Source: Caldimonas sp.
GTDB lineage: Bacteria; Pseudomonadota; Gammaproteobacteria; Burkholderiales; Burkholderiaceae_C
Length of the DNA: 43,388 nt
Assembly: GCA_039933535.1 (NCBI GenBank)
Contig: JBDTNU010000001.1
Coordinates: forward strand, 1 to 43,388
Reading direction: 5' to 3'
Shown: positions 3,675 to 37,594 of the stretch, one piece after another
Layout of the letters: each line of letters opens with the position of its first letter
Numbering within the stretch: position 1 is the first letter of the stretch
Notes under the pieces: generated by a model
Told to the model about the DNA's origin: nothing
Databases searched by the model: none
What the model saw: the letters and a program-made list of their open reading frames with translations, nothing else
Made by a program: the position numbers and the translations under genes

Positions 3675-5465
3675 TCAGCCTTCGAGCGACTTCAGAAGCT
3701 CGGCAAGGTCGGGATCCATCTCCTCGTCCGAGGCGACGGCTTCTTCGGTCGGCGCAGCGTCGTCGCTCGGCGCCGGTGTGCCGCTACCGTCATCGCCCAG
3801 GCTGGCGAGCAGATCGTCCAGGCTGGTGTCGTCCGAGCTCGAACTCGACGTGTCGGCATCGGCGCTCGCCGCGTCATCCGTGACCTCTTCGGTAGCTTCA
3901 TCGTCGCTCGCCGCGGCCTTGGCCCTGCCGCTCCTGGCCGGCTTCTCGGCATCGGGATCGGGCATCTTGCCTTGCAGCGAGGTCGTGAACGACATTCGTT
4001 GCGCCGGCTTGGCCATGCCCGACAGCGAGATCGCATTGCCGTTCACGGTGTCGAGGCCGGCGATGCGCAGCTCGGGCTGGCCCTTGTGCGCCATCAAGGC
4101 GTCGATGCCGACCCGGCGCAGCATCTCGGCCGACGCCATATTGATGAGCCGCTCCGTCGTCGGCAGTGCCACCTGGTCGCCGTCGCCGTCGACGACATAG
4201 TGAAACGGCAGGTCGCCGATCGACAGCGTGCTGCCGGACGGCGCGGCGAGCAGCGCGGCCGCAAGCAGCGCTGGATGACCCCACAGCATGCCGCGCATAC
4301 CTTCTTCGGGAGTGAACTCCTCGAACGCGAAGGCGCTGATCGGATCGCTCTTCTTGCCGTAGGGATGACGGAGCATGAAGCGCGGCGAGAGCAGGGCCAG
4401 GTGCGAAGCTTCGGGCAGGTCGCGCAAGGCCTCGAGCGCCTGTGCCATCAGGGCGTGAGGAGGGTTTCGGCGATCGGTGAAGGCCTCGCTGCTGATCGAG
4501 GTGATGAAGGGCGCACCCGCGCAGGCGGCGATCTTGGCCATGCGACCGAGCAACTCGGCGTGTGGCGGCGTCGGCTCGAACTGATACAGGCCGAGGATCA
4601 GGGAAACGCCACCGGCCTTGTCCTGCGAAGGCTTGTCGACCAGCATCGAATACAGGCCCGTCTCGGTGAGATCGCTCGCGCCGCTCAGGTCGGCCGCGAA
4701 TTCTTCGGCCGAAACGTCGACGAGCAGCACTTGCAGCGACGGACCCGTCTCGACTCGCCTGAGCACCATGTCCATGCCGCGCCAGAGCGCCTCGAGGTTC
4801 TGGAATTCGGCTTGATGAAGGACCGTGCGCATCGCGTCGGACAGGGCGCTGTCGACGGTGGCCACCAGCGCATCGCGCTTCGGGTCGGGTGCCTTGGTGA
4901 CGAAGGGACCCAGGATCCGCTTGAGCAACGCGTCGACGGGTGCATCGACGTTGACCTCCGGCGCGATGCCGACCAAGCGTGCGAAGTCGGAAAGCTTGGC
5001 GTCCGCCGCAGGAGCGCCGCTCTTCGACCGGCGCCGGCCGCTGCGCGACGCGCGACGCAGTGGCCCGTACATGGCCTGCACCTCGGCCGCGGCCTTCGCG
5101 AAAGTTGCGGTGTTGTTGAGACGCTTCCTCAGGTCGGCAAGCGCCTTGAACATCGGCAGGTCACGGTACAGCGTGTCGGGATGGAAACTGTCGAGGTCGC
5201 CGAACTCGACCTCGACGCCGTCGCCGCCTTCGCCGATCGGCAGGGCCAGCTTGACCTCCAGGCGCGCGAGCGTGTCTTCGAGCGTGTCGAACTCGACCGC
5301 GATCATCTTGCGGCGCGCCAGGTCGTCGCCGGTCTCAAGGCGTCCGGCGGCGGCGCCGGCGCTGAAGTCGCCGAACACCGCGATGCGCACCGGGCGCTTG
5401 GCCGCCCAGGGTGGCGGCGCGGCGTCGAGCGTGCCGAAGTCGGGAGTCCAGTCGTCGTCGCTCAT
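3675..5465 (-). CDS. Atypical T6SS sheath-like protein: TssB-like N-terminus fused to a truncated TssC-like domain, with an acidic disordered tail
   Basis: N-terminal RIAVFGDFS...VEFDTLEDTL...VEFGDLDSFHPD aligns by eye with TssB (VMADLSG...IDVDNFDARM...ITFESMDDFSP); VLHQAEFQNLEALWRGM, APFIT, PRFMLRHPYGKKSDPISAFAFEE align with TssC (IIHHEDFQKLESAWRGL, APFIT, PRFLARLPYGAKTSPVDEFDFEE). Confidence 0.8.
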   Translation of the reverse strand: MSDDDWTPDFGTLDAAPPPWAAKRPVRIAVFGDFSAGAAAGRLETGDDLARRKMIAVEFDTLEDTLARLEVKLALPIGEGGDGVEVEFGDLDSFHPDTLYRDLPMFKALADLRKRLNNTATFAKAAAEVQAMYGPLRRASRSGRRRSKSGAPAADAKLSDFARLVGIAPEVNVDAPVDALLKRILGPFVTKAPDPKRDALVATVDSALSDAMRTVLHQAEFQNLEALWRGMDMVLRRVETGPSLQVLLVDVSAEEFAADLSGASDLTETGLYSMLVDKPSQDKAGGVSLILGLYQFEPTPPHAELLGRMAKIAACAGAPFITSISSEAFTDRRNPPHALMAQALEALRDLPEASHLALLSPRFMLRHPYGKKSDPISAFAFEEFTPEEGMRGMLWGHPALLAAALLAAPSGSTLSIGDLPFHYVVDGDGDQVALPTTERLINMASAEMLRRVGIDALMAHKGQPELRIAGLDTVNGNAISLSGMAKPAQRMSFTTSLQGKMPDPDAEKPARSGRAKAAASDDEATEEVTDDAASADADTSSSSSDDTSLDDLLASLGDDGSGTPAPSDDAAPTEEAVASDEEMDPDLAELLKSLEG

Positions 5466-5501
5466 GTGTGCTCCTGGTGCCGCGCTCGCTTGCGAGCCGC
5501 G

Positions 5502-7394
5502 TCAGTTGATCTCTTCAGCCGTGAACAGTCCCGCGCCGTAGTCGTCGGTACAGGGCTGCTGGCAGACGGGCCGGCCCGCAAAGATCGACGCACTGCTGCC
5601 CTGTGTCTTGGCTGCCGCGCTCGCCTCGTCGGCGGTGGTCTGGGCAAAGCCATCCTTCATCTTGAGACCGAGTCCCGAGAAATCGCGTGGGAACTTCGAG
5701 ACGATCGCAATCAGGTGATCGATGCCCGCGGGCCCGCCGACGCCGATGTCCCAATTGCCCTTGCCCGGCGGCAGCGACAAGGTCGTCTCGGCGCGGATCT
5801 GGTTGTTCTTCGACTCGGCGTTCGGGAACAACTGGATGATCGCGCCGTCGGTGCCGTGCATCAGCACGTAGAGGTGACCCGCCTTCTCGGTCTTCACCTT
5901 GAAGGTCATCTTGTCCTTGTTGATCCGGAGTTGCGGCTTGTCGGCGGCCGCCTCGACCTTGTAGTCGGGCGACTGCGCCGCCGCGACGCGCTCGAACTCG
6001 TGCGCCGGATCGAACGGACCGACCGCGGCGGCCTGCATCGGAACGGCTCGCTCCGCCGGTGCTGCCGGCGTCGTGACGGCCGGCGAAGCCGTTTCCGCCG
6101 ACGCCGGGGCGGCCGGCGTTGCGGCAGCGATCACGGCAGGCATCGTGGCGGGCGTCGCCGCGGTCGTCGGAGCAGCAGACTTGCCTCCGAGGAATGCATA
6201 CAGGCCGCCAGCGACGGCGAGCACGAGGATCACGCCAATACCTGCGAATATGCCAGTGCGGCTCTTGCGCGCAACAGCCGCTCCGGCGGGCAGGCCGCCA
6301 GCGATGGTGCTCGGCGACCGGCTGCGCCGTTCGGTCTTGGCCGGGTCCGGATCGCTTGCGGCCATGCCGAGGTCGCGGCGCAGGTCGTCGATCGATTGGG
6401 TCCGCTGCTCCGGCTTGACGATGAGCGCGCGATCCATCGCCGCAAGAAATCCGGGGCTGTAGCGACCCGCGCCGGCCTGCGTCATCGGCACGTAGTTGTC
6501 GTTCATGAGCCGGCCGACCGAGGTCGGCGGCGTCTTGCCCGTGATCGCGTAGTAGACAACCGCGGCGAGCGCGTACACGTCGGTCCACGGGCCCTGCTTC
6601 ATGCCCGGCACTTCTGCGTACTGCTCGACCGGTGCGTAGCCCGGCTTCAGGATCACCGTGAGCGCCTGCGTCATGTCGCCGATGACGCGCCGTGCCGCGC
6701 CGAAGTCGAGCAGCAGTGGCCGGTTGCTGCCCTTGAGCAGGATCACGTTGTCGGGGGCGATGTCACGGTGGAAACATTGCTCGGTGTGGATCACCGCGAG
6801 CGCCTCGGTGAGCGGCTCCAGCAATTCGCGCAGCCAGTCTTCGTCGGGCGGCGCACCCATCGCCTTCAGCTCGTCCTTGAGCGTGACCCCCTCGTAGAAC
6901 GGCATCACCATGTAGGCCGTGCCGTTCGCCTCCCAGAACCGGTAGACCTTGACCAGCGACGGATGGTCGAACTGGGCCAGCAACCGCGCTTCATTGACGA
7001 AGCTCTTCAGGCCGGCCTCGAAAGTCTCGCGGTGCCGCTCGGACTTCACCGAAACCTGGGTGCCTCCCACGCGCTGGGCCAGCGACGAAGGCATGTATTC
7101 CTTCAGCGCGACGCGCCGGCCGAGCGAATGATCCTCGGCCAGATAGACGATGCCGAAGCCGCCTTCGCCGAGCATCTTCGTGATCTCGAACTCGCCGAGA
7201 TAAAAACCCACCGGGAGATGGTTGCCGCCGTCGTTCGAAGGGGCGCGCGCGGGACGCGGCCGGATCACCGTCGCGTCCCCGTCGGGGGAAAAGGGCTCCG
7301 GCGGCGGTGCGATTTCCGTGCGCGGCGGGGCAGCCTGCGTCTTTGGCGATTGCGGCGGCAGGATGCGGGTGGGCTGATCGTCGTCGTTGCTCAT
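5502..7394 (-). CDS. ppkA: T6SS Ser/Thr protein kinase PpkA-like (kinase, one TM helix, Ala/Pro linker, probable DUF4384 periplasmic domain)
   Basis: LGEGGFGIVY, VALKEY, HRDIAPDN, DFG, YAPVEQ, DVYAL kinase motifs; hydrophobic segment GIFAGIGVILVLAVAGGLYAFL; C-terminal GHLYVL..G.IIQLFPN typical of DUF4384; ATG at 7394 just after the tagF stop. Confidence 0.88.
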   Translation of the reverse strand: MSNDDDQPTRILPPQSPKTQAAPPRTEIAPPPEPFSPDGDATVIRPRPARAPSNDGGNHLPVGFYLGEFEITKMLGEGGFGIVYLAEDHSLGRRVALKEYMPSSLAQRVGGTQVSVKSERHRETFEAGLKSFVNEARLLAQFDHPSLVKVYRFWEANGTAYMVMPFYEGVTLKDELKAMGAPPDEDWLRELLEPLTEALAVIHTEQCFHRDIAPDNVILLKGSNRPLLLDFGAARRVIGDMTQALTVILKPGYAPVEQYAEVPGMKQGPWTDVYALAAVVYYAITGKTPPTSVGRLMNDNYVPMTQAGAGRYSPGFLAAMDRALIVKPEQRTQSIDDLRRDLGMAASDPDPAKTERRSRSPSTIAGGLPAGAAVARKSRTGIFAGIGVILVLAVAGGLYAFLGGKSAAPTTAATPATMPAVIAAATPAAPASAETASPAVTTPAAPAERAVPMQAAAVGPFDPAHEFERVAAAQSPDYKVEAAADKPQLRINKDKMTFKVKTEKAGHLYVLMHGTDGAIIQLFPNAESKNNQIRAETTLSLPPGKGNWDIGVGGPAGIDHLIAIVSKFPRDFSGLGLKMKDGFAQTTADEASAAAKTQGSSASIFAGRPVCQQPCTDDYGAGLFTAEEIN

Positions 7395-7398: not shown

Positions 7399-8595
7399 TC
7401 ATCGGGCCTTGCCGGTGTCCGGCTCCGCGGGCGGTCCGCCGAACAGGTCGAGGATGTCCGACTTGTTCGGCTGGGCATGTCCCTGTTCTGGCGATTCATG
7501 CGACGCCTGCGTCGAAGACAGGCCGGAAGGGGCCTCGAACATGGCAAGGATGTCGTCGTCCTTGGGTGGGCTCGGAGGCCCAGCGTCGAACGGCGCCGAG
7601 ACGTCACCGGCGCCGAAGAGGGCAAGGATGTCGTCGCCCTCGCGAGCCGGATCAGGGCGAGGGCTTGCAGCGCTGGCCGTCTCGGAAGAAGCCTGGAACA
7701 TCCCAAGCAGGTCGGTTTCTTCGGCCATCGCCCGACGTGCCGTGGCGGCGATGGGCGCGTCCAGGGCCTGCGGCAGGGTAGCCTGCGGATCTTCCTCGAA
7801 GGGCGCGGCACGCGCCGCGGCGCCCCGCATTGAGTCGCTGCCACCACCGAACATGCGCGCGAAGTCGTCGTGGCCGGGCAGGCCCTCGCTGACGAGCAGC
7901 CGCGACCGCGCCGGAGAGTCGTCGATCCAGAAGGCGATGCCGTGCAAGGCGGGCGCCGCAGCGATCGTGTATGCCAGCCCTGATTCAGGCGCGCGCGAGG
8001 AAAACACTGTCGCGAGCTCGGCGCGACTGGTGATCGAAGCGATGTCGACGAAACCGCCGCCGCCGGACACGGCCGCCGCAACCGCGCCGCGCACGGCGGC
8101 GAGACGATCGTCGGAAGAAGCCGCCGCTTCGTCGGTGGGCGGCGACAGGTCCGCGAGTGCGTGCTCGAGATCGTCGATGCTCCAGTCGCCCTGCAAGGCA
8201 TCGAGCGCCGTATCTTCGAGCCGATGCATCCAGCCGAGCAGCGAATCGAATTCGGCCGCGACTTCGGGAACGCGTGGGAGCGAAGCCGCGATCGTGAGCG
8301 GAAAGTAGCGGCCGACACGATCGACCGAGGGCACCAGCACGCCAGCGAAGGCACGCGTGGGTTCGACACCGGGTAGCACGCCCGGCGCGAGCAAGAAGCG
8401 CCACGGCGGGCTGTCCAGGTAGGCCTCGACCCAGGCGTCGCCGAGCGCCTGGCGTTGTACCTGCATTGCGTCGCCAAGCCACAGGTCCCAAGGCTCGATG
8501 AAGTCGGCCTCGAGCCGGCGCGAGGCGAAGTCGCCAAGCGTCGGCAGCTTGCCGTACCAACCCGGAATCTTCGCGACGTCGCTGGTGACGTTCAT
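7399..8595 (-). CDS. tagF: T6SS-associated post-translational repressor TagF with a long low-complexity C-terminal tail
   Basis: PGWYGKLPTLGDF, AYLDSPPWRF, GVLVPSVDRVGRYFPLT; lies between tssM and ppkA; ATG at 8595. Confidence 0.9.
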   Translation of the reverse strand: MNVTSDVAKIPGWYGKLPTLGDFASRRLEADFIEPWDLWLGDAMQVQRQALGDAWVEAYLDSPPWRFLLAPGVLPGVEPTRAFAGVLVPSVDRVGRYFPLTIAASLPRVPEVAAEFDSLLGWMHRLEDTALDALQGDWSIDDLEHALADLSPPTDEAAASSDDRLAAVRGAVAAAVSGGGGFVDIASITSRAELATVFSSRAPESGLAYTIAAAPALHGIAFWIDDSPARSRLLVSEGLPGHDDFARMFGGGSDSMRGAAARAAPFEEDPQATLPQALDAPIAATARRAMAEETDLLGMFQASSETASAASPRPDPAREGDDILALFGAGDVSAPFDAGPPSPPKDDDILAMFEAPSGLSSTQASHESPEQGHAQPNKSDILDLFGGPPAEPDTGKAR

Positions 8596-8602: not shown

Positions 8603-11600
8603 TCACAAGGATCCAGGGCAACGAAACTGCTGGATCTCGCGCAGGCGGAAGGGATTGAACACGCTGTTAGACGTGACCTCGAGTCGCGCGCGTCGACCCT
8701 CCAGAAGCATCGGCACGACGAAGCGCTCGGGCTGTGCGGTCGGCTGCACTTCGAAACGATCGAAGATGCGGAACAGTGCCCAAGGTCCATCGGCAGTGAG
8801 TGCCGCGGTGCCCGGCGTGGTGGTGATCTTTATCTGCGACGCGACGCGCGCGCTCGGCCACTGCAAGGTCACCGGCGTCGTGTTGCCGGCGAGGAACTTG
8901 TAGACGGTGCCGTCGACCTCGAGGTTCATCTCCTTCATGCCATCTTCCATCTCGACGGCGCGGATGTCGACCTTGAACGATGGCGTCTTGCCGCCGCTGC
9001 GGAAGAAGACCTCCTTGATGCGCGCGGCGCGCTGGAAGTCGACCAGCGCCGCTGCGTTGACCGGCTTCGAGCCGTCGCCCACGGGCTTGAAGGTCCACGG
9101 ATTTGTGCCGGTGTCGACCAGGGCGGCGAGCTTGCGACTGTAGAAGTCGTCGAGCATGCCGCCGGCGCCGAACAGCTGCGCGAAGTCTTCGGGCAGGACG
9201 TCGCCCTTCGAGCTCGCGGTGAAGGGATAGCGTCCGGTGATGGCGCGATTGCAGAAGTCGCTTATCGGCTTCAGCTCGCTCGTCAGCCCTTCGCGCTCGA
9301 CCGCGCGCCCGGTCGTCGCTGCCGCACCGGCAAGCTTTTCGAGGATCGACCGCGCCGGCTCAGGCAACTGCCCGGCCGCCGCCTTGATTCGCTCGCCGCC
9401 TGCGGCGGGCGGTGGCGCCGACTTGCTCTTCTGCGCCGCATCGACCGCGGCGAGCTGCACGTAGACGTCGTTGAACATCTTGAGGATCTCGTCGATCGGC
9501 GGCGGCTGGCCAGCAACGAGGCGGCGGATCGGCTCGAAGTGGTCGTCGACCATCTGCTCTATCGGCGGCCCGGTCTGGACCGCGTCCGCGCCAGGCACTT
9601 TCACCTTGCCGAGCACTGCCGCCATTTCGCGCTTGGCCTGTGCGGCCTTCTGGTCGATCTGGCCGACCTGTGTGCCGTTGGTCGTGCCGGGCGCCACCTT
9701 GGGTTCGACGAGCGTCGTTTCCCGAGCCACGCCGCGGAGGAACGCGGCGAGTGCCGAATCGACACCAGAGAGCTGGCGAGCGACCTGCAGGCTCTGGTCG
9801 AGCCCGCCCAGCTTGACGATGCGGACGTCGGCGATGTACTTGTCCCAGACCTTGATGTACTCCTCGAAGTACAAGCGGCGCACGCGGTTGGTGAGCTCGA
9901 TGTTCGCCTTGCCGAGGGGCAGCGACTTGTTCGCCTCGGTCGGACGCAGTCCGAGCACCCAACTCTCTTCCGATGCGAGCTGGCGCGTTGCCTTGTCGAC
10001 CGATGTCTCGAACGCCTTGCGATAGCCCTCGCGCGTGAACAGGCCAGGTATGCCCTTGGTCAGCGGCTCGCCGCTGGCACGCTCGAAGACCGTCAGCGCA
10101 GACGGCCCGGCAGCTCCTGCCACGGTGAACGGCGGCAGGTCGGCGCCGACCTGGGCGCGCTTGAGCCGGCTGAAAACCCGGTACTCGAGCGGAAACGCGA
10201 CCAGCATGTCGCGAACGCCGGCGACGAGGTTCTTGTCCATCGGCACCGCAGGCGGCGGTGCGCCGTGGGCAAGCATCGCGTCGAGGTGCTCGTCGAGCGC
10301 CTGACGCTGCTCGGGCGCGAGGCTGCGCTCCAGTGCGGCATCCCAGTCGATGCCGACGTAGGCCTTGAAGGCGTCGGCGTCGAACTTGTCCGGCGTGTAG
10401 ATCATCAGGTAGTTCTTGAGCGCCTCGTAGGCCAACTCGAGGTTGTCCTTGTTGGCGGCACGCAGCCGCTCTTCGAGCCTGCGAACGACGCGCGGCATCA
10501 GGGCGTGATCGAGCAGATGCTGGTAGCCGAAGTCAGCGGCGGCATCGAGCTTCTTGCCCTGGAACAGGCCCAGCGACATCGAAAGCGGAGGCTTGTCGAG
10601 TGAAAACTCGGCCGGCTGCGCGGCGTTGCGGACCGCAGTCAGCACGGGTGGCAACGGCGTCACGTCACCCGAGGTCGCGGGCGGGACGCTTTCCACCGTC
10701 TTCTTCAGATCCGGAAGCTTGGCCTCGATCTCGGCGATGTAGTTCTTGTTGCGTCCATAGCTCACGACCCAGCCGGCGATCAGGCCGATGCTGACCAGCA
10801 GCACGATCGCGAACCCCGCCAGGCGCAGCCGCCCGCGGCGCCGCTCCATCGCCCGGTTCTCGCCGACCAGGCCTTGCTCGGTGAAGACGACGTCCTTGAG
10901 CAACCGGTTCAGAAAGAAGCTCTTGCCGCGCGCTGCGGCCGGCGGCGCGAGCCGACGCTCGATGCCGAAGGTGCGTGCCAGCGTGCCGAGCACGCGGTCG
11001 ATCGGCGTGCCTTCCTGCGTGCCGCTGGTGAAGTAGACGCCACGCAGCAGCGGCCTTTCTTCCATCGTCCCGCCGGCGCTGAAGACCTGTTCGAGAAAGC
11101 CGCCGAGCAGGCCGCGCAACCCGGCGAACTGCTGCGGAAAGTTGAAGATAGCGGCACGCTTCAAGACCTCGTGCTCGGCGTCCATCAACGGCACGACCCG
11201 GTCGCGCAAACGCTTCTCGAGCCCGGAGAACTCGGAGCCGAAATTGACGAGTGGATCGTCGTTGCTGGTTGGCGCGTAGGGGAAGCTGAAGCCCCACACC
11301 TGGTTGCGCTCTTCCTTGCTGAGCGCGCCGAAGCTCTCGTTGAACCCGGCGATCAGGTCGGCCTTGGTGACGAGCACGTAGACCGGCGCACGAACGCCGA
11401 GCTTTTCGGCAAGTTCCTGCATGCGTGCGCGCAACTTGGCCGCGTGGTCCTTGCGCTCGACCGGTGTCTGCTGCAGCAGGTCCTGGATATTGACGGTGAG
11501 CAGGACGCCGTTGATCGGCCTGCGCGGCCGCGACTTGCGCAGCAACGCGAGGAAGCCGTCCCACGCGCTCGCATCGACTGCCGAGTTCGATTCCTGCGTG

Positions 11601-28470: not shown

Positions 28471-30338
28471 ATCACGCTCCGCGAGCCCAGCTCGGGTTGC
28501 CAGGTCATGATCTCGCCCCGCGTGAGCGACGTCACCGTCGTCTGGGCAAAGCTGTTCATGGAGACATGGCGGGAAAAATACTGATGCAGCACGGAGGCGA
28601 GCAACACGGCGCTGCCCCCCTCGAACGACAGATCGTCGACGGTCAACCCGACGTCAATGCCGCGTCCGAATGCGATCGGACCCGGTGTCGGGTGACGACG
28701 AACGATCGGCCGAATCTGTACCGAGCGAACACCTTCGACCTGGCGACGCACGCCGCTTTCCGCCCCTTGCGCGAAAACGCCGAGCAGGTCGCGCAGGGCC
28801 AGCGCCCCTTTGTCTGCGTCTTCGTCGAGCAGGGTCACGTAGCTGAGCGAAAGCAGGCTGAGCAAACGCCAGGCCATCGGTCCGTCGCGGGTGGCGGCGA
28901 TAGGACGCGAAGGACCGGCGACCACGCGAATCGATTCCACCGGGGCACTCCGCGTCAGCGTGAGATGCGCATCGGTGTCGCCGAGTGGAATGAACAGCGG
29001 CAGGTCACGGTTCGTGACGCGAACCCGTGCCGCCAGCTGGCGCAGGTCGCGTCGCCATGGCGCGTGCTGCGGGTCGACTAGCGAGACGAAAACCTCGGAC
29101 CCGATGTAGCCGGAGCGCGGACCATCGCGTCGCGAGCGTGCGTTCGGCAAGCGCGGCTCGCGTTCGGCGCAGAAGTAGCCTCCGGATCCCGGCGCTGTCG
29201 ACGGCGCAGCGAACAGCGGAACGAACTCCTGCTCGTTGCTGTCTTCGTCGAAGGCGTGCAGCGACAGGATGTCGAAGACTTCGTAGTCGGCAGGGGCGGA
29301 CCGCTCGGGAACGAGATGGAATGCGTTCGACGTGTCGTTCAGCTCCGGCCGTTCGGCACGCCGCTCGAACAGGTTGATCGCGGGCACGCAATGGAGCAGG
29401 AAGTTCTCAGGACCGACCGATCCCTCGAGCGCGGCCACGTGGCGCTTGAAGAGGAACACGAGCTCCAGGACGCTGCCCGCGGTCTTCGCGAGGGTGGGCG
29501 CCAGCGAGGTCACGTCGAAGAACAGGAAGCGTTGCGCGAATGCGAAATATTCCTGCAGCAGACGCACGCCCGAAAGGCCCCGCAGCGTGATCGGCAGCAT
29601 CGAATGCGCGTCGCTGTAGCCGACCGGCTGCAGGCTCGTCGCCGGCAGAAACTGACGCGGGCGCTCCGCGCCACGCGCTGACGGTGCACCGACGAGCACG
29701 CCGACGCATGCGCCGGCGAGCAGCTCATGGAGCTGCAGCGACACGTCGGTAAGTCCGCCTAGGTAGAAGCGCAGTGCGTCGAGCCGGAGCTGCGAAACCG
29801 TCGCACCGGTCGGCAGCTCCATGCGCACGCGCATGCCGCTCTTGGGTCGCTCCGACAGCGGCAAGGCCGAGAGCGACAGGTCGGCCGCGCTCAGGAAGTA
29901 TTCGACCGAAGTCACGCGCAACGGCGTGAGGACCAGCTCCTGCGCGGTCCGGAATTCGCACCGGGTCGGGCCGAGGGCGCTGGCGGAGCTCATGAGCGCC
30001 GAGCCCTTGGGTAACAGGAACCCTGCCAGCAGGTTGGGATCGTTCCCCGGACGCAGCTGCGCCACCAGCATCGACGGCGTGGGGGCCGTGAGATTCGGGC
30101 AAACCATCTCGAGCAGCCGCTGCGAGAGCTGGGGGAATTCGGCATCCTGCTTGAGCTGCACGCGTGCAGCAAGAAAGGCCGCCCCTTCGATGAGCCGCTC
30201 GACATACGGGTCGGCGACCTCGAGCCCTTCCATGCCGAGCCGGCTGGCAATCTTCGGAAAATCCCGGGCGAACTCGCCCCCCATCTCGCGCAGGTAGCGG
30301 AGCTCCTGGTTGTAGTAACCGAGCAGGCGGGGATCCAT
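28467..30338 (-). CDS. tssF: T6SS baseplate subunit TssF
   Basis: MDPRLLGYYNQEL, DPYVERLIEG, LLQEYFAF, CVPAINLF, TNRDLP, VSMNSF. Confidence 0.96.
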   Translation of the reverse strand: MDPRLLGYYNQELRYLREMGGEFARDFPKIASRLGMEGLEVADPYVERLIEGAAFLAARVQLKQDAEFPQLSQRLLEMVCPNLTAPTPSMLVAQLRPGNDPNLLAGFLLPKGSALMSSASALGPTRCEFRTAQELVLTPLRVTSVEYFLSAADLSLSALPLSERPKSGMRVRMELPTGATVSQLRLDALRFYLGGLTDVSLQLHELLAGACVGVLVGAPSARGAERPRQFLPATSLQPVGYSDAHSMLPITLRGLSGVRLLQEYFAFAQRFLFFDVTSLAPTLAKTAGSVLELVFLFKRHVAALEGSVGPENFLLHCVPAINLFERRAERPELNDTSNAFHLVPERSAPADYEVFDILSLHAFDEDSNEQEFVPLFAAPSTAPGSGGYFCAEREPRLPNARSRRDGPRSGYIGSEVFVSLVDPQHAPWRRDLRQLAARVRVTNRDLPLFIPLGDTDAHLTLTRSAPVESIRVVAGPSRPIAATRDGPMAWRLLSLLSLSYVTLLDEDADKGALALRDLLGVFAQGAESGVRRQVEGVRSVQIRPIVRRHPTPGPIAFGRGIDVGLTVDDLSFEGGSAVLLASVLHQYFSRHVSMNSFAQTTVTSLTRGEIMTWQPELGSRSVI

Positions 30339-30350
30339 CTGGGCAGCCGC

Positions 30351-30881
30351 TCAGGCGCGCATGTCGCGCACGGAGGCCTGCCCCGTGTCGACGTTGACGT
30401 CCGCGCTGAGCAGCAACTCGAGCGGCACCGGCTGGTTCCAGAGCGATCCCTTGATGACCAGGCGCATATTCAGGGTCTGCTGCCCAGGGTGTTCGTTGAC
30501 GACTTCGACCTTCAGGGTTTTCGGGTCGATGCGCGGCTCGAACCGCACGATCGAGATTCGGATGCGCTCTTGCAGGGCCGCGAAGTCCGTGGCAGCCAAC
30601 GACCGCCCCGACAACGCCGGGATGCCGTAGTTGAGGACGGACTCGCGCGCCGCATCAGCGCGCTGCCACATCTCGTAGCGCTCCTCGTCATCGCTTTCGA
30701 GGTCGGCCTCCTCGCGCGTCGCATTGAACAGCCAGCTCATGTCGCGCAGCACGGCGGCACGCAGCTGATTCTTGTTGAGGACGCGGGCTTCGAGCGACTC
30801 GCGAAGCTCGGTGGGCGCGTCGTCCCTCAGGCGATCGAGGAGTGACGGCTGCAGCCGTTCCTGAGAAGCCAGGCCTGCCAT
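30351..30881 (-). CDS. tssE: T6SS baseplate subunit TssE (gp25-like)
   Basis: LQPSLLDRL, VLRDMSWLFN, SVLNYGIP, IVRFEPRI; ATG at 30881 overlaps the tagJ stop. Confidence 0.93.
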   Translation of the reverse strand: MAGLASQERLQPSLLDRLRDDAPTELRESLEARVLNKNQLRAAVLRDMSWLFNATREEADLESDDEERYEMWQRADAARESVLNYGIPALSGRSLAATDFAALQERIRISIVRFEPRIDPKTLKVEVVNEHPGQQTLNMRLVIKGSLWNQPVPLELLLSADVNVDTGQASVRDMRA

Positions 30882-31732
30882 CAGCCGCCCGCGCTCTGCG
30901 ATGTCACTGTCGGCGGCGCTGCGAACTCGATCCGTTGCACGCCAAGGAGCGGAAACTCCCCGGAGTCGGTGGCAAAGATGCGCTGACCGAGGCCGAACCA
31001 GCGCTCGTCGCCAGCGTCCTGCCATTCGGTCTTGCGCGAGAGCAGGATCAGGGGATCGTCGCTCCCCACACTGCCCGGGTAGCGAGCCGGAACGAGCGCC
31101 ACCGTGCCGCCACCGTCATGGAAGGTCAGCTGGGCGGGAGCCCAGACGAAGTCCCGAAGATCGGCGGGCGGATCGAATTCGATGCGCGCGATCCGCTGGA
31201 ACGGAATCCAGTAGTACTGCCCGTTGACGCAGGCTTCGAGCACCGGCCCAACGCGCGAATCGGCGTCCGCGATCCATTCGAAGGGCGCGCCGTCGATGCT
31301 GCCCGGGGTTGCTGGCGCAGCTTCGAATGCTCGCGCCGACAGCTCCGCGGCAAGCGCAGCGTTACCCTGCCCTTGTTGCTGCAAGGACTCGAGCAACTGC
31401 GCCAGCCAGGCCAGAGGCTCGCCGATAACCATCGGCGTCCGCTGGCCCGCGAAGACCTTGGCGCGAACAAGCTCGCTGCGGATCGCGTAGCCAACGGTCT
31501 CGCGCATCGGCCCGGTCGACGGGTCGAGCTCGGCCACGACGTTCAACTGCGTGTGAGCGCGCTCCCACTGTCCGAGCACGCAGAGAAGTTGCGCAAGGAA
31601 TACGCGCAACCCGACGTCGTTCGGCGACCCTCGGACGGCGGAGGTGAGGTGCGCCAGCGCACCCTTGGGATCGCCGCCGCGTACTGCCGCTTCGGCGAGC
31701 GCTTTGATATCGGATTTCTTGGTTTCGGACAT
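30881..31732 (-). CDS. tagJ: T6SS accessory TagJ (ImpE/SciE family)
   Basis: RVFLAQLLCVLGQWERA, FEWIADADSRVGPVLE, YYWIPF, DLRDFVW, PARYP, GLGQR; ATG at 31732. Confidence 0.92.
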   Translation of the reverse strand: MSETKKSDIKALAEAAVRGGDPKGALAHLTSAVRGSPNDVGLRVFLAQLLCVLGQWERAHTQLNVVAELDPSTGPMRETVGYAIRSELVRAKVFAGQRTPMVIGEPLAWLAQLLESLQQQGQGNAALAAELSARAFEAAPATPGSIDGAPFEWIADADSRVGPVLEACVNGQYYWIPFQRIARIEFDPPADLRDFVWAPAQLTFHDGGGTVALVPARYPGSVGSDDPLILLSRKTEWQDAGDERWFGLGQRIFATDSGEFPLLGVQRIEFAAPPTVTSQSAGG

Positions 31733-31775: not shown

Positions 31776-32375
31776 CTAGAAGCCGTGTCCGCAATCGCCG
31801 CAGAAGCGGGCCTCGCGAGGTTGCGTGGCGCCGCAGGATGGACAACTCTTGTGCGTGCTCGCCATGTCGAACCCGCACTCAGCACAAAAACGTCCGCCCT
31901 GAGAGGGAGTCTGACAGTTCGGACAGGCCAGCCCGCCTCCACCTTGACCTGCGTTCCGTTGCGTTCCACCCTTGACGCAGTCGAGACAGAGCCCGCTGCG
32001 CTCGTCGAAGCATTCGTCGCCAACCCACTTTTGGCACGCATCGCAGCAGTGATAGCGATCCTTTGCCAAGGCCATGGCTTCCGCCTGAGCCTCGGCGCGC
32101 GCGCCCGCGGTTCCGGCGTCGGCAAAGGCGCCGACACCTCGACTCGCACGGTAGATGTTCGAGACGACACGGGAGAAGCCGTTCAGCCATCCGCCGAGCT
32201 CCTGCGTCAGCGCGGAGGAGCGGGACAACAGACCGGTGAGCTGACCCTTGCGATACGTCTTGAACGGCGAGCGCCAGGTCTCGCCGCAACGTTCGCAAAA
32301 GAATTCGAACTGGAATCCGGCACCGAGGTCGGACGTCGACGCTGTGACGTCGCGGAAATTTTTCTGCATCGGCAC
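31776..32375 (-). CDS. Cys-rich multi zinc-ribbon protein (double zinc ribbon at C-terminus)
   Basis: 16 Cys mostly in CxxC pairs (CERC, CCDAC, CLDC, CPNC, CAEC, CPSC, CGDC); GFQFEFFC N-terminal motif; start GTG 32375 or ATG 32369. Confidence 0.8.
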   Translation of the reverse strand: MPMQKNFRDVTASTSDLGAGFQFEFFCERCGETWRSPFKTYRKGQLTGLLSRSSALTQELGGWLNGFSRVVSNIYRASRGVGAFADAGTAGARAEAQAEAMALAKDRYHCCDACQKWVGDECFDERSGLCLDCVKGGTQRNAGQGGGGLACPNCQTPSQGGRFCAECGFDMASTHKSCPSCGATQPREARFCGDCGHGF

Positions 32376-32393: not shown

Positions 32394-33224
32394 TCAGTCT
32401 CGCGACTTCATGACAAAAAGGCTCGTCGTTTGCGCAGCCGCGCGCGCCAGCTTGGCGCCCGCGGTTGCATCGCGGTGAAATCCTTCGGGAGCCGCGCCGA
32501 GGCGACCCTTCTGCTGGTCGACACCGCGCGTGTTGGTATACGAGAACGATATCTCCGAGAACTCGGCTTCCCAATCCTCTTTCATGTCGGCCATGGTGTC
32601 GTCGACTTCGACGTTCAGGTCGTACTTGAGAAAGCGCAGGTTCTTCGCGGTGACAACGATCGTGAGCGGTGCGCTCACCGAACGATGGAAGATCGTGATC
32701 ACGACGCGCGGCAGGATCTCGCCGGCCTTCATGCAATTGAGCATCTGCGTGCTCGCGAAGTCGACTCGCTTGCTGAAGGAGAACTCCAGGTTGCCCAGGT
32801 CCTTCTTCTTCTTTTCCTTCTCGTAATCCTCCATCGCCTGATGGGCCGCCGAAGTGATCACCGCCGCTTTCTTTTTTCCGGACTCCTTCTGAATCTCGTC
32901 GACCTGCAGCATTGCCGCTCGGACTGACTTGGCATCGTCCTTGTTTACACCCGCTAAGACATCCTTGAGGGCTTTGTCGGCCCTCGGGTCGACCAAGTCT
33001 TCCGCGAGAATGTTGAATTCGAGTTTCATCTCCTTGTCGGATTTCGAGAGGAGCTCGGCTTTCGATTCATCCCTGGCACGCTTCTCGACCTCCTCCTGGT
33101 TGACGATCTTCCAGTTCCAGTCGAGCACTTCGACCTGCTGGTTGAAGGGAATGGCCATCGCCTCGCCCAGGATCGGCAACCCCGACTTTCGGATCATCAA
33201 CAGGTAGACCTCTGCGCCGTCCAT
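32394..33224 (-). CDS. Divergent Hcp-fold protein with ~100-aa charged insertion
   Basis: ILGEA...VEVLDWNW, FSFSKRVDFASTQML..M..GE, EDWEAEFSEISFSY match the Hcp strand pattern; residues ~41-142 are a K/E/D-rich insert. Confidence 0.75.
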   Translation of the reverse strand: MDGAEVYLLMIRKSGLPILGEAMAIPFNQQVEVLDWNWKIVNQEEVEKRARDESKAELLSKSDKEMKLEFNILAEDLVDPRADKALKDVLAGVNKDDAKSVRAAMLQVDEIQKESGKKKAAVITSAAHQAMEDYEKEKKKKDLGNLEFSFSKRVDFASTQMLNCMKAGEILPRVVITIFHRSVSAPLTIVVTAKNLRFLKYDLNVEVDDTMADMKEDWEAEFSEISFSYTNTRGVDQQKGRLGAAPEGFHRDATAGAKLARAAAQTTSLFVMKSRD

Positions 33225-33229: not shown

Positions 33230-33781
33230 CTACTTCTTGAAGAAGAAGGGAATCGTCGGCGTATGCGCGTTGATGGCGTCCACCTTGCGCATGTACGTGA
33301 TCGAGATCCCGGTGAAATTCATGGTCACGTCCTCAATCAGTTCGGCGCCCATCTGCGAACTCTGCAACTTGATCGACACATCGGAAAAGTATCCACCGGT
33401 CACGGTGAGGTTGTAGCCGGCGTCGCGCACCGGCCCGACCAGGTTCTGGATGTTCAGCACGGTGATCGACGCCAGCACGACCGGAACCTTGTTGTCGAGC
33501 GCCAGCATGATCCACGCAGACGAGGTGTCGACACGCTTCTTGAAGGAGAGCTTGCCGAGATTGATCTGGACCTCGTTGCCGCCGATCCCGAGAAAACTCG
33601 AGGCTGCGCCTGCAAGGCTGAGACCGAATCCCGCCTTCGCCTCCGGATTCTTGTGGGCGGTCATGTCCCACTTGAAGTCGATCAACTCGATCTGCCCGGT
33701 AAAGGGCGGAGCCGCCTGCCCCTCGCCCAGGATCGGGCCGACCAACGTCGTCAGCTGAAGAAAGATGTTCGACCAAGCCAT
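33230..33781 (-). CDS. Divergent Hcp-fold protein
   Basis: ILGEG...IELIDFKWDM, LSFKKRVDTSSAWIM, EDVTMNFTGISITY follow the Hcp pattern; adjacent to canonical hcp. Confidence 0.78.
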   Translation of the reverse strand: MAWSNIFLQLTTLVGPILGEGQAAPPFTGQIELIDFKWDMTAHKNPEAKAGFGLSLAGAASSFLGIGGNEVQINLGKLSFKKRVDTSSAWIMLALDNKVPVVLASITVLNIQNLVGPVRDAGYNLTVTGGYFSDVSIKLQSSQMGAELIEDVTMNFTGISITYMRKVDAINAHTPTIPFFFKK

Positions 33782-33799
33782 CCGCGAACCTCACAGGCA

Positions 33800-33859
33800 G
33801 TCATCGCGGGAGCGGGCACGCGCCGCGATGACATTCGATCCGCCGGCGCAACCGCCGGC
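33800..33859. repeat. Two tandem stem-loops between hcp and its first paralog
   Basis: GTCATCGCGG (33800-33809) / CCGCGATGAC (33823-33832) perfect 10-bp stem; GCCGGCG (33842-33848) / CGCCGGC (33853-33859) 7-bp stem. Confidence 0.65.
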
Positions 33860-33879
33860 CAAGCCCTCGTGGCCGATGC

Positions 33880-34377
33880 TTATTCGACCGAGCCTTCTGG
33901 AATGTTCCAGTGGTACTTCATGGCCGAGTCGAGCTTGCCGGTGTTGAGCTGCGGCTTGTACTCGATGAACACTTCCTTGAAGACGCACTCGATCTTCTGC
34001 GTGACGTTGCCTTCCTCGGTTCCCGAATTCGAGACCTTGGTGATGTAGGTGTTCTTCATGACCATCTTGAAGTACTGCTCGGGAACCGGGCCGCCTGTGG
34101 TCTTGCACATGTTCAACTCGGCCGAGTCGAACGACTTGCCCTGGCAGATGAATCGCATGATCGCCGGCGATGACTTGTCGAAGTAGTGCTCGAAGTTCAT
34201 CTTGCCCGGGTTCGGCTTGCCGACGCTCGCGCCGCCGCCCTTGGTCCAGCTCGACTCGGCTTCGATTTCCCAGTCCCAGCCCTGGATTTCGAACCAGCCC
34301 TTGTCTCCCTCGAAGCCCTTTTGCTTGGACTCGCCTTGCGAGTCGTTGCTGAATTTCATGAATGCGTTGACCGGCAT
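33880..34377 (-). CDS. hcp: T6SS tube protein Hcp (TssD)
   Basis: QGES, EIQGWDW, GGGASVGK, FDKSSPAIM..CQGK, FKEVFIEYKPQ; CAGGAG RBS; directly after tssC. Confidence 0.94.
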   Translation of the reverse strand: MPVNAFMKFSNDSQGESKQKGFEGDKGWFEIQGWDWEIEAESSWTKGGGASVGKPNPGKMNFEHYFDKSSPAIMRFICQGKSFDSAELNMCKTTGGPVPEQYFKMVMKNTYITKVSNSGTEEGNVTQKIECVFKEVFIEYKPQLNTGKLDSAMKYHWNIPEGSVE

Positions 34378-34422
34378 GTCTGAATCTCCTGAAAGTTAAT
34401 TGATTGGCGACGACCGAGAAAA

Positions 34423-35919
34423 TCAGGCGGCGCCCTTCTCCGACGGAAGCTTCGAAACCAGGCGCAAAGACACCGTCAGGCCTTCGAGCTGGTAGTGTGG
34501 TTTGAGATAGAACTTGGATTGGTAGTAGCCGGGTGCGCCCTCGACTTCTTCGACTTCGACCTGCGCCGCCGCAAGGGGCCGCTCCGCCTTGGTTCGCTCG
34601 GACGAGTGCGCCGGATCGCCGTCAACATAGTTGAGGATCCACTTGTTCAGCCAGTCGGACATCGCCTCGCGGTCCTTGAAGGATCCAACCTTGTCACGCA
34701 CGATGCACTTCAGGTAGTGCGCGAAACGGTTGCAGGCGAAAAGGTACGGAAGACGGGCGGCCAGCGCGGCATTCGCCGTTGCGTCGGGATCGTCGTACTC
34801 CTGGGGCTTCTGCAGCGACTGTCCGCTGATGAAGGCCGCGAAGTCGGAATTCTTGCGGTGGATCATGGACAGGAAGCCGTTCTTCGATAGCTCGGCCTCG
34901 CGCCGGTCGGAAATGGCGATCTCCGTCGGGCACTTCATGTCGACGCCGCCGTCGTCTGACGGGAAGCTGTGCGTAGGCAGGTTCTCGACCGCGCCGCCCG
35001 ACTCGATGCCGCGAATTCGCGAGCACCAGCCGTACGACTTGAACGAGCGGTTGACATTGACCGCCATCGCGTAGGCGGCATTCGCCCAGCTGTACTTGGC
35101 GTGGGTCGCGCCGGCGGTGTCTTCCTCGAAGTCGAACTCGTCGACCGGACTCGTCTTCGCGCCGTACGGCAGCCGGGCGAGAAATCTCGGCATGCACACC
35201 GCCAGATAGCGGGCGTCATCGGATTCACGGAGGGAACGCCATGCGGCGTATTCCGGCGTCGTGAAGATCTTGGTCAAGTCGCGCGGGTTGGCGAGTTCCT
35301 GCCAAGACTCCATCTGCATGACGCTCGGGCTGGCACCGGTGATGAACGGCGCGTGCGCCGAAGCGGCCAGCTTCGACATCTCGGTCATCAGTTCGACGTC
35401 GGGCGGCGTATGGTCGAAGTGATAGTCGCCGACCAGACAGCCGTACGGCTCTCCGCCGAACTGGCCGTATTCTTCTTCGTAGAGCTTCTTGAAAAGCGGC
35501 GACTGATCCCAGGCCGTGCCCTTGTAGCGCTTGAGCGTCTTGCCAAGGTCGGCCTTGGAGACGTTCATCACGCGGATCTTCAGCTCCTCGTCGGTCTCGG
35601 TGTTGTTGACAAGATAGTGCAGGCCGCGCCACGCCGACTCCAGCTTCTGGAAGTCCTCGTGGTGGATGATCTTGTTGACCTGCTCGGTCAGCTTCTTGTC
35701 GAGCGCAGCGATCATTGCCTCGATCGTGCGCACCGCATCCGTGCTGCGCAGCGCCGTGTTGGCGAGCGCCTGCTGTGCGAGAGTCTGAACTGCCTGCTCG
35801 ACGGCGCTCTTCGCCTCGTCGGTCTTCGGCTTGAATTCCTTCTTCAGCAACGCCGCGAAGTCGTTGCCTTCAATCGTCACGCCGGCGAGTGCCGAGCCTT
35901 GTGTTTCGAGTTCAGCCAT
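34423..35919 (-). CDS. tssC: T6SS contractile sheath large subunit TssC (VipB)
   Basis: IIHHEDFQKLESAWRGL, EEEYGQFGGEP, PRFLARLPYG, KCPTEIAISDRREAEL, RFAHYLK, PHYQLEGL. Confidence 0.97.
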   Translation of the reverse strand: MAELETQGSALAGVTIEGNDFAALLKKEFKPKTDEAKSAVEQAVQTLAQQALANTALRSTDAVRTIEAMIAALDKKLTEQVNKIIHHEDFQKLESAWRGLHYLVNNTETDEELKIRVMNVSKADLGKTLKRYKGTAWDQSPLFKKLYEEEYGQFGGEPYGCLVGDYHFDHTPPDVELMTEMSKLAASAHAPFITGASPSVMQMESWQELANPRDLTKIFTTPEYAAWRSLRESDDARYLAVCMPRFLARLPYGAKTSPVDEFDFEEDTAGATHAKYSWANAAYAMAVNVNRSFKSYGWCSRIRGIESGGAVENLPTHSFPSDDGGVDMKCPTEIAISDRREAELSKNGFLSMIHRKNSDFAAFISGQSLQKPQEYDDPDATANAALAARLPYLFACNRFAHYLKCIVRDKVGSFKDREAMSDWLNKWILNYVDGDPAHSSERTKAERPLAAAQVEVEEVEGAPGYYQSKFYLKPHYQLEGLTVSLRLVSKLPSEKGAA

Positions 35920-35951
35920 CTGAGTAGCTCCGGTTCAAAGGTCTGTGTCGT

Positions 35952-36446
35952 TCACTCTTGTGGCTTGGCTTCGCTGGTCAGCGTGGCCAGCAGCGCAGGA
36001 TCGGCGAGAACCTTGGAGATGAGCTCCTCGGCGCCGGTCTTGCCGTCCATGTACGTGATGAGGTTGGCCAACTGGGTCCGGGCCTCGAGCAGCTTGTTGA
36101 GGCCGTCGACCTTGCGCGCAATCGCGGCAGGCGAGAAGTCGTCCATGCTCTCGAACGTGATGTCGACTGGAAGGCTGCCCTCGCCGGTGAGCGTGTTCTC
36201 GACCTGGAAGGCGACGCGCGGCTTCATCGACTTCATGCGGGCGTCGAAATTGTCGACGTCGATCTCGAGGAACTTGCGGTCAGCAACCGGCGGCAGCGCC
36301 TCTTCGGGTTTGCCGGAGAGGTCCGCCATGACGCCCATCACGAAGGGCAGTTGCACCTTCTTTTGCGCCCCGTAAAGCTCGACGTCGTATTCGATCTGGA
36401 CGCGGGGAGCGCGATTGCGCGCGATGAATTTCTGACTGCTGCCCAT
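35952..36446 (-). CDS. tssB: T6SS contractile sheath small subunit TssB (VipA)
   Basis: SSQKFIARNRAPRVQIEYDVE, LPFVMGVMADLSG, FESMDDFSP. Confidence 0.97.
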   Translation of the reverse strand: MGSSQKFIARNRAPRVQIEYDVELYGAQKKVQLPFVMGVMADLSGKPEEALPPVADRKFLEIDVDNFDARMKSMKPRVAFQVENTLTGEGSLPVDITFESMDDFSPAAIARKVDGLNKLLEARTQLANLITYMDGKTGAEELISKVLADPALLATLTSEAKPQE

Positions 36447-36514
36447 AGTGACTCCTCGTGAAATCCGTTAGCCGTACAGACGGCCTGAGCCGTTTGTAAT
36501 CGCGCATCTTGCCA

Positions 36515-37594
36515 TCATTCCTGTGCCTGGAGAGCGGAAAGTTCCTCAGCGGAAATCCCCATCACCCGGGCGACTTCGTTCAGCGATTCCGGTGCGAGCT
36601 CGCGTACCAGTTCGACGAAGTTCTTGTTGACGAGCCTCCTCGCTCGTCGGAGCAAGAGTTGCGCCGGGTTGGTCGGCTCGGTGCGTTCCAAATACTCGCA
36701 CACCATGTCGATCGCGCGCAGCGCGTCGTTGCGATTTTCGATCGAGCCACTCAAGGCGGCGCGTGACGCCGCGCGCCGGGGCGAGGAGTCGTCGTCGCCT
36801 TCTCCGCCCTCGCCGGCGGAGGCATCTTCGCCGTCGCCCTGGCCGCCCGGCATCAGGTCGCGGATCCCGGTCAGCACGGTGATCAGGGGCTGGACATCGG
36901 GTCCTGATGCGTAGCCGACCCGGTCGCGCATCACCTGATTGATCGCGCTCACCTTGGCGAGCGCCGCAGTCGGGAATTGGCGCAAGGCCGGGTTGGATTC
37001 CGCGCCATCGCGCAGCATCTGCTCGACGGTGGAGCGGCCGAACGCGGCATCGCCGGATCGAGGCTCGAGCAGGCCGAGCGCGACCTCGATATCGCGGCCG
37101 CGCAGTTCGCCGATCGACCGATCGTTGAGGATTAGCGACTCACGCAAATCACCGAGCACCCCGGCCAGGCTGACCATGTCGTTCAGTGCGTTGACTCGGG
37201 CATAGGCGTCGCCGTCGTCGGGAAGCGGGTGCAGCCCGTCCCAGAACTGGTTCAGCAGGCCCTCGATCAACCGCAAGCCCTCGGGAAGCGTCGCCGCACC
37301 CTCTAGATGGATTTGAGCTCGGCACCAATAGATGGCGACGCGAAGGTCGCGCGTTCGTTCGAACAGGTTCTGCGCGTGGCCGAGAGCTGCCCGCCAATCG
37401 GGAGCGAGACCCTCGGGATCGAACTGGGTCGCCGCACGGCCCGCGGCGGCCTTTTCCATCTCCCGGAACTCGTCGTCGTATTCGAGGTTGTCACCACTCG
37501 GACTGCCCGCAAGCGGCTGCAGCCAGGAGTCGACGATCGTCAACCGCGCAGGCGTACCGTCGCTACCACTCCCACCGCCCGCGCTGTCATCCAT
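36515..37594 (-). CDS. tssA: T6SS TssA (short, ImpA-N type)
   Basis: PSGDNLEYD, RTRDLRVA, WDGLHP, C-terminal YLERTEPTNP..LL.RA..L..K.F.EL. Confidence 0.92.
   Translation of the reverse strand: MDDSAGGGSGSDGTPARLTIVDSWLQPLAGSPSGDNLEYDDEFREMEKAAAGRAATQFDPEGLAPDWRAALGHAQNLFERTRDLRVAIYWCRAQIHLEGAATLPEGLRLIEGLLNQFWDGLHPLPDDGDAYARVNALNDMVSLAGVLGDLRESLILNDRSIGELRGRDIEVALGLLEPRSGDAAFGRSTVEQMLRDGAESNPALRQFPTAALAKVSAINQVMRDRVGYASGPDVQPLITVLTGIRDLMPGGQGDGEDASAGEGGEGDDDSSPRRAASRAALSGSIENRNDALRAIDMVCEYLERTEPTNPAQLLLRRARRLVNKNFVELVRELAPESLNEVARVMGISAEELSALQAQE

Follow-up and report, generated by a model that had tools for sequence, protein, structure and literature searches.

A tssJ-less type VI secretion locus of Caldimonas sp. 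with two minor Hcp paralogues and a truncated TssB-TssC fusion

The window analysed here is a stretch of 43,388 nucleotides from Caldimonas sp. (contig JBDTNU010000001.1, positions 1 to 43,388), and it was found to contain a single type VI secretion system (T6SS), carried on the minus strand, with 12 core genes each present once in a Pfam/NCBIfam scan (tssA, B, C, hcp, tssE, F, G, clpV, vgrG, tssK, L and M). A sequence-only reading of the window had counted 12 of the 13 core genes, with tssJ unrecognisable, and had added two divergent hcp genes, a TssB-TssC fusion, a zinc-ribbon gene and a free OmpA-domain protein. The count was borne out, with no match to PF12790 or TIGR03352, and all of the added genes were found to be real by Pfam. 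Two further points emerged, namely that a pair of conserved genes, U592 and U268, follows the DUF4123 gene and that the fusion lacks the C-terminal handshake domain of TssC. The gene order from tssA onwards is tssA, tssB, tssC, hcp1, hcp2, hcp3, zinc-ribbon gene, tagJ, tssE, F, G, clpV, vgrG, DUF4123, U592, U268, fha, pppA, PAAR, a divergent ompA-domain gene, tssK, L, M, tagF, ppkA and the fusion. The preferred reading, plausible though still short of probable, is that of an H1-like T6SS without tssJ that uses a ring of minor Hcp2 and Hcp3 proteins and a TssA-linked, non-polymerising sheath-assembly factor. The genes on which this reading turns are listed below.

36515..37594, minus strand: short TssA (ImpA_N; Pfam/NCBIfam)
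34423..36446, minus strand: canonical TssC (with the PF18945 handshake domain) and TssB (Pfam/NCBIfam)
33880..34377, minus strand: major Hcp1, with canonical GGG loop and strong ribosome-binding site (Pfam/NCBIfam)
33230..33781, minus strand: minor Hcp2, an Hcp domain with an altered, longer stacking loop (Pfam)
32394..33224, minus strand: minor Hcp3, an Hcp fold with a charged helical insert of ~100 residues (43-143; Pfam, model)
31776..32369, minus strand: zinc-ribbon protein (DZR, PF12773), 197 aa, with invariant CxxC pairs (Pfam)
3675..5465, minus strand: TssB'-TssC' fusion (sheath domains 2 and 3, residues ~1-480, then a 108-residue acidic tail; Pfam, homologues, model)

The distribution of this kit was evaluated in one sample of 200 genomes from that family, all with a completeness of 90% or more, of which 64 gave a TssC-like match. 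The fusion and both minor Hcps were found in all nine nearest relatives, the genomes with the best TssC matches (82-89% identity; G051, G199, G191, G012, G073, G142, G097, G081 and G193), and the carriers of the zinc-ribbon gene among the 200 genomes were exactly these nine. Their loci present one or two major hcp genes, then hcp2, hcp3, the zinc-ribbon gene and tagJ, an order intact in 9/9, with the T6SS locus split between contigs in G199 and G081. The nearest named fusion homologues, labelled Caldimonas, Piscinibacter or Burkholderiales, are database records that stand outside these counts. In a TssC tree, the window, the nine relatives and a plasmid locus of Eleftheria formed one clade of 11 rows, with a support of 97 in a 32-row quick tree and of 99 in a 42-row FastTree, built after the removal of seven long or distant rows and the addition of 17 loci. 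The co-occurrence as a clade that the sequence-only reading had proposed to check was confirmed for TssC. This co-occurrence shows one lineage; its members are kin rather than independent cases, and co-function is not proven by it. Outside the clade, the fusion, tssJ loss and a minor hcp do occur separately. Four genomes combine the fusion with a tssJ-bearing T6SS (G171, with the fusion in the locus, and G195, G045 and G022, with orphan fusions) and three carry loci without tssJ and without the fusion (G026, G196 and G047), and the two traits are thus not strictly coupled.

Some members of the clade differ in arrangement. Four loci form a subgroup with two major-type hcp genes and four hcp genes in all (L033 6340-7505, L037 6888-8017, L042 1122-2191 and L046 4597-5759). 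In G073 (L039-L041), ~29 kb lie between the fusion/tagF end and tssM. The Eleftheria terrae plasmid locus (L087, NZ_CP106952.1, 3954-21767) carries four hcp genes, U592/U268 and the fusion; tssL, tssM, clpV, tagJ and the zinc-ribbon gene were not seen within 20 kb of the fusion, and six RebB R-body genes lie ~14 kb downstream.

The fusion (596 aa) matches PF05591 at residues 25-121 and PF05943 at 198-406, with a single VipA-like domain. Its homology to TssC ends at TssC residue 357, and PF18945 was not detected in it by Pfam. Relative to a sheath protomer, domains 2 and 3 are present, and domain 1 (PF18945) and the C-terminal arm of TssC are missing. In canonical TssC, the gp25-like PF18945 and the C-terminal strand build the handshake that polymerises the sheath (PMC5807055). 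Domain 1 was found in none of 270 fusion homologues (120 close ones and 150 representatives), with the control reaching E 1e-69. The model of residues 1-490 (pLDDT 94) gave T6SS sheaths as the best structural matches (against 5N8N, Z 26.8, rmsd 4.7, 296 aligned). Because domain 1 and the C-terminal arm are absent, the family is judged from structure to consist of one-chain domain-2+3 modules that would be unable to form an ordinary sheath ring. Of the specialised sheath ring or cap proposed earlier, an ordinary ring is ruled out, leaving a cap or helper role. The acidic tail contains conserved DLDALLASL-like and MDPELAALL-like motifs, and a more distant group of homologues ends right after the core, without a tail. 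Repeated DxLxxLFG-type motifs of low complexity, in a pattern like that of the tail motifs, were also noted in the TagF tail (about 7400-7750) and the Fha linker.

The wider family was explored by a single-protein search that returned 981 representatives at E up to 1e-30, a set that may include ordinary TssC, and the best 150 of these were examined. The family spans Burkholderiales, roseobacters and Pirellulales, with invariant core residues and uniform truncation. Four of the 150 representatives end in TssA (3 complete, 1 cut), and ten start with a canonical TssB, from which a long acidic linker leads on, so that the module is covalently joined to TssA or to TssB in these relatives. The TssA-fused forms, P0225, P0256, P0284 and P0299, are natural fusions in which an acidic linker joins the sheath module to a short TssA. 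The window fusion, the TssB-led form known as TssCL and the TssA-fused forms belong to one subfamily (support 99), and a Pirellulales-labelled relative falls in the branch of the TssA-fused forms. In a phylum-wide sample the fusion was present in 2/300 genomes, against 63/300 with any match; the profile also matches ordinary tssB plus tssC, and only uninterrupted full-length matches were counted.

In Suria et al. (2022, PMC9515649), TssCL is presented as a fusion restricted to roseobacters, found in tssJ-less group-3 loci and with no assigned function, and the window fusion thus belongs to a family already in print. Both proteins are encoded by an extra sheath gene beside normal tssB/tssC, contain a diverged VipA plus VipB domain and occur in loci without tssJ, and over 486 aa the window fusion and the Leisingera module share 44% identity. 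The window protein, however, has neither the near-canonical N-terminal VipA (TssB) domain nor the long acidic linker, and with 596 aa, compared with ~1,700 aa for TssCL, it is a homologue of the C-terminal module only. It also lies outside Alphaproteobacteria, where PMC9515649 found no TssCL, and the roseobacter loci examined have one hcp, unlike the window. The section of that paper on TssCL mentions neither the missing handshake domain nor TssA-fused forms. A second sheath-like gene in a tssJ-less locus is also known from Agrobacterium/Rhizobium systems, in which TssC40 (ImpD) is essential for Hcp secretion (PMC3702570). The Rhizobium ImpD-type protein shows the opposite truncation, keeping PF18945 and lacking the VipA part, and identity of the fusion with ImpD/TssC40 was rejected on this ground.

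The two extra Hcp open reading frames passed the PF05638 cut-off of 23.5 bits narrowly, with 27.8 and 27.3 bits. The best PDB match of Hcp1 was PA0085, and the Foldseek matches listed for the Hcp3 model were T6SS Hcp proteins or Hcp fusions. Hcp2 and Hcp3 keep the Hcp core motifs and have lost the GGG loop of the major Hcp; in the window's subgroup of Hcp3, a hypervariable charged insert (43-143), predicted to be helical, replaces the ring-stacking loop, and the other subgroup has C-terminal helices in place of the insert. The equivalent loop is required for ring stacking in another Hcp (PMC4650826). In a tree calculated without the cut Hcp3 of G073, the major Hcps formed one group (99), and Hcp2 (88) and Hcp3 (86) formed long-branched sister groups (95 together). 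Hcp2 and Hcp3 are two fast-evolving sister groups with altered stacking loops.

The earlier statement that a proteobacterial T6SS has one Hcp is wrong for this family, since in 12 of 16 additional loci (L094-L109), picked from TssC matches of 73-81% identity, the major hcp is followed by a second, divergent one, with tssJ on the same contig in 10 of the 12. The same arrangement was seen in G159, G171, G026 and G061. No study on the function of the single minor hcp of H1-like T6SS was found in the literature searched. Azoarcus BH72 has tandem hcp2/hcp3 genes whose products are both secreted (PMC6423157), their orthology to the window genes being unchecked. The products of divergent hcp pairs that lie side by side in Bacteroides assemble into heterohexamers of low abundance, which load the effector encoded next to them (PMC13213661, PMC13035841). 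The GA3 T6SS of Bacteroides resembles the window in having a conserved major hcp and an adjacent fast-evolving divergent hcp pair, followed by a small gene. GA3 is a T6SS-iii, whereas the window system is a T6SS-i, and the Bacteroides heterohexamers have been solved, whereas the Hcp2/Hcp3 heteromer is predicted by analogy. Moreover, the Bacteroides pair adjoins a variable toxin and immunity gene, in contrast with the conserved zinc-ribbon gene, then tagJ, found here in 9/9 with no immunity gene. The heteromeric tube proposed by the sequence-only reading survives as a minor-Hcp ring, plausible by the Bacteroides analogy, and a single minor hcp is also frequent in neighbouring loci that bear tssJ.

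Strong RNA hairpins (z -2.6 to -4.2) precede hcp2 in 5/10 loci (L033, L035, L037, L042 and L046), and hairpins between major and minor hcp could step down expression; in the window, the spacer between hcp1 and hcp2 shows no stronger folding than its shuffled versions (z -1.0). Contigs from RNA libraries (four runs of one study, word shares 0.05-0.12) cover parts of the hcp2, hcp3 and zinc-ribbon genes of relatives, a coverage that neither shows transcription nor ranks the genes. A record of an apparent Hcp3-DZR fusion (P0155) has the look of a frameshifted call and was set aside.

The remaining genes of the locus are as follows.

30881..31732, minus strand: TagJ/ImpE
27328..30881, minus strand: TssG, TssF and TssE (Pfam/NCBIfam)
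24612..27335, minus strand: ClpV, with H1-type N-domain (Arg6, Asp87; NCBIfam; PMC4239648)
22326..24584, minus strand: VgrG (Pfam/NCBIfam)
21753..22301, minus strand: DUF4123 adaptor (Pfam)
19967..21745, minus strand: U592, conserved protein without a named family, 592 aa
19159..19965, minus strand: U268, conserved protein without a named family, 268 aa
17098..19104, minus strand: Fha/TagH, with a long low-complexity linker
16305..17054, minus strand: PppA phosphatase
15905..16294, minus strand: PAAR-like protein (DUF4280)
15284..15835, plus strand: OmpA-domain protein (PF00691), with a signal-peptide-like N-terminus and without a lipobox, TagN-like by architecture
13596..14933, minus strand: TssK, without tssJ upstream (Pfam/NCBIfam)
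12148..13533, minus strand: TssL, long form with its own OmpA peptidoglycan-binding domain (Pfam/NCBIfam)
8603..12151, minus strand: TssM (Pfam/NCBIfam)
7399..8595, minus strand: TagF, with a low-complexity C-terminal tail
5502..7394, minus strand: PpkA-type Ser/Thr kinase with DUF4384

TssA-I, TssK, TssL and TssM, which mark a T6SS-i, are all present, and the TssJ lipoprotein is not. TagJ, a short TssA, charged groove residues in ClpV and a TssC without LLDEII liken the system to the H1-like or group 3 T6SS as delimited in PMC4239648 and PMC13584744; its TssC is 72% identical to that of Leisingera, whose loci are group 3 in PMC9515649. The H1-T6SS of P. aeruginosa shares the short TssA, TagJ, ClpV Arg6/Asp87, TssC without LLDEII, the PpkA/PppA/Fha/TagF set and the long TssL, and differs in that the window lacks TssJ and has the extra Hcps, the fusion, the zinc-ribbon gene and U268/U592. 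One copy each of vgrG and the PAAR gene was found in the window's own genome (65% complete), and a promoter and terminator scan of 30,000-38,000 gave chance level only.

No PF12790 or TIGR03352 match was found in this same 65% complete genome, the usual tssJ slot upstream of tssK is occupied by the divergent ompA gene, and a lipobox scan of the window and 16 clade loci revealed no credible lipoprotein open reading frame in the locus and no credible TssJ substitute in the T6SS operons. PF12790 was absent from five of the nine relatives (99-100% complete), and in the other four the sole match lies beside a second T6SS. A sub-threshold TIGR03352 match on another contig of G073 (E 0.002) was rejected, as controls reach the same level. 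Systems without TssJ have been published for Agrobacterium (PMC3702570), Xanthomonas i3 (PMC9048695), Acinetobacter (PMC13584744) and roseobacters (PMC9515649), so that of the TssJ-independent envelope anchor proposed as part of an undescribed subtype, the lack of TssJ held and its novelty did not. The architecture of the OmpA-domain protein is that of TagN, a stand-alone exported OmpA-domain protein in a T6SS locus, and the lack of TssJ together with a separate periplasmic OmpA-domain protein likens the window to the Acinetobacter and Xanthomonas i3 systems (PMC13584744, PMC9048695). In the window's clade, unlike those systems, the OmpA gene is variable; it lies in the locus in 5/9 relatives, elsewhere in 2/9 and was not found in 2/9, and is thus not the fixed kit part that it had been taken for. 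No substitute of the TsmK/TslA type was identified here, no homology search for these proteins having been made. Four loci of another type (L057, L059, L062 and L063, in G064, G162, G063 and G166) have, directly upstream of tssK where tssJ usually lies, a fusion homologue without a tail and, wherever hcp was seen, one copy of it.

In the preferred reading, TssB/TssC and Hcp1 would build an ordinary contractile tail. Hcp2 and Hcp3 would form a scarce heterohexamer that loads or holds a specific partner, the first candidate being the adjacent 21-kDa zinc-ribbon protein, and this mixed ring would be placed at a tube end because the stacking loops of Hcp2/Hcp3 are altered. The fusion, as a one-chain copy of the middle and outer sheath layers, would dock at a sheath end or on the TssA ring and there stabilise or stop growth, its acidic tail binding a further T6SS partner; TssA is reported to bind TssB/TssC and to coordinate tail assembly (PMC13584744). 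The envelope complex would function without TssJ, as in the other known lineages, anchored by the OmpA domain of TssL with the TagN-like protein optional, and might be started from Fha, as reported for Acidovorax (bioRxiv 2023.12.21.572528).

Several points weigh against this scheme. The interactions of Hcp2, Hcp3, the fusion and the zinc-ribbon protein in it are all predicted, and short TssA has been reported both at the baseplate and at the growing end (PMC13584744), so that either end may be involved. The TssA-fused forms, 4/150 representatives, all fall in one sub-branch, and the Hcp2 and Hcp3 groups, on long branches, reach a support of no more than 88 and 86. Three genomes carry the fusion apart from the T6SS, two of them beside a kinase gene, an arrangement that fits a regulatory role equally. 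In the monomer model, fusion residues 11-20 have a pLDDT of 97, which suggests that this N-terminal arm might be folded back. With 43-62% identity, the zinc-ribbon gene shows stronger conservation than the minor Hcps; it has no adjacent immunity gene, unlike the Bacteroides cargo, and is absent from the Eleftheria locus, which keeps Hcp2/Hcp3, and for these reasons its product counts as a candidate cargo.

A regulatory role is the essence of one alternative, in which the fusion is a soluble decoy or adaptor for recycling by ClpV/TagJ, or part of a Fha-PpkA-TagF hub, and never touches the assembling sheath end, its tail motifs being short binding helices. Consistent with this, the fusion keeps a helix, LSDFARLVG, where the N-terminal helix of TssC sits, together with repeated LDxLL-type motifs; Fha and TagF of the same locus contain similar motifs, the fusion adjoins ppkA/tagF in members of the clade and a kinase gene where it is an orphan, and the Fha condensates of Acidovorax recruit T6SS parts (bioRxiv 2023.12.21.572528). 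Nevertheless, the window ClpV has Arg6 and Asp87, the pair reported to block the helix-binding groove (PMC4239648), and the module, being fused to TssA or TssB in relatives, is bound up with the tail itself; the alternative is regarded as rather unlikely. The accessory genes might instead be passengers co-inherited by descent, the minor Hcps being non-tube regulators or dispensable paralogues and the fusion a degenerate duplicate. Kin share genes, so that joint presence within a single clade counts as one event and does not prove co-function; the fusion gene is found at varying positions, and the parts dissociate outside the clade in the seven genomes named above. The age and breadth of the fusion family, with its invariant core residues and uniform truncation, and the order hcp-hcp2-hcp3-dzr-tagJ kept in 9/9 relatives, speak against this explanation, which is considered distinctly improbable.

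Ends like those of phages or extracellular contractile injection systems were also considered, with Hcp2/Hcp3 as initiator or terminator rings and the fusion as a genuine cap, giving its N-terminal strand to the last sheath ring and fixing tail length. A conserved beta-strand-like motif of the fusion is kept at the spacing of the TssB handshake arm, and a subunit with the arm and without the acceptor domain would, judging from the sheath structure (PMC5807055), end the lattice. Yet the arm region looks packed in the monomer model; a complex prediction of two copies of TssC domain 1 (372-498) with fusion residues 1-30 scored 0.00, without controls, and weighs neither way. Stacking on one face would be obstructed by the insert of Hcp3 or by its C-terminal helices, but the structural matches listed for Hcp3 are T6SS Hcps and not tube initiators, and a single minor hcp is often present in ordinary loci that have tssJ and no fusion. 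Unlike variable effector cassettes, the kit is a constant feature of the clade, and the plasmid locus lacks tssL, tssM and clpV within 20 kb of the fusion, whereas the window locus has a full TssL/TssM complex. Phage-like ends of this kind are considered unlikely.

Returning to the preferred reading of a minor-Hcp ring and a TssA-linked assembly factor, most of its individual ingredients are known from other systems. In the literature searched, no precedent was found for the clade-wide combination, for a handshake domain that is lost uniformly, for the TssA-fused forms or for an Hcp3 with helical insert. That literature, which held few subscription papers and did not include Table S7 of PMC9515649, where homologues may be listed, gave no description of the short fusion, the TssA-fused form or this kit. 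Of the undescribed T6SS subtype suggested earlier, the kit combination therefore stands as not found in that literature, and TssJ loss, TssCL and minor Hcps are precedented. How sheath growth is stopped or stabilised in short-TssA systems and how a T6SS functions without TssJ are open questions of the field (PMC13584744), and a broad family of one-chain sheath copies without handshake domain, joined to TssA and TssB, is a direct candidate for a missing factor in assembly. Within Proteobacteria, the clade provides a case in which to test the division of labour between major and minor Hcps, so far shown in Bacteroidales, and the module is available in the environmental isolates Piscinibacter defluvii SH-1, Eleftheria terrae and Leisingera. 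A stronger version, a proteobacterial T6SS tail with dedicated end pieces resembling those of phages or extracellular injection systems, namely a terminal Hcp2/Hcp3 ring equipped with a helical appendage and a TssA-tethered, non-polymerising TssB-TssC cap that ends the sheath at a set length, all functioning without an outer-membrane lipoprotein, is unlikely; if true, it would represent a new class of sheath terminator reaching beyond Burkholderiales to roseobacters and planctomycetes.

U592 and U268 gave no match in Pfam, NCBIfam, PHROGs or a PDB sequence search, and only unnamed clusters in the Atlas. U268 was found in 11/200 genomes, comprising eight of the nine relatives and G038, G026 and G183. 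Both genes follow vgrG-DUF4123 in the clade and in genus g27 (also in L068 of G026 and L095 of G183), and they are too conserved for a typical effector cassette. Divergently from tssA, a two-partner secretion pair is encoded on the plus strand, with TpsB at 37796-39520 and a filamentous TpsA (PF05860) at 39611-43388 that runs off the window end; TpsB homologues (45-64% identity) flank the T6SS in G051, G012, G097, G193 and G026, and the pair is possibly an adhesin or an outer-membrane link in tssJ-less loci. At the opposite side, positions 11-3416 (plus strand) hold the housekeeping genes pilC, pilD, coaE and zapD, an insertion site shared by many close relatives.

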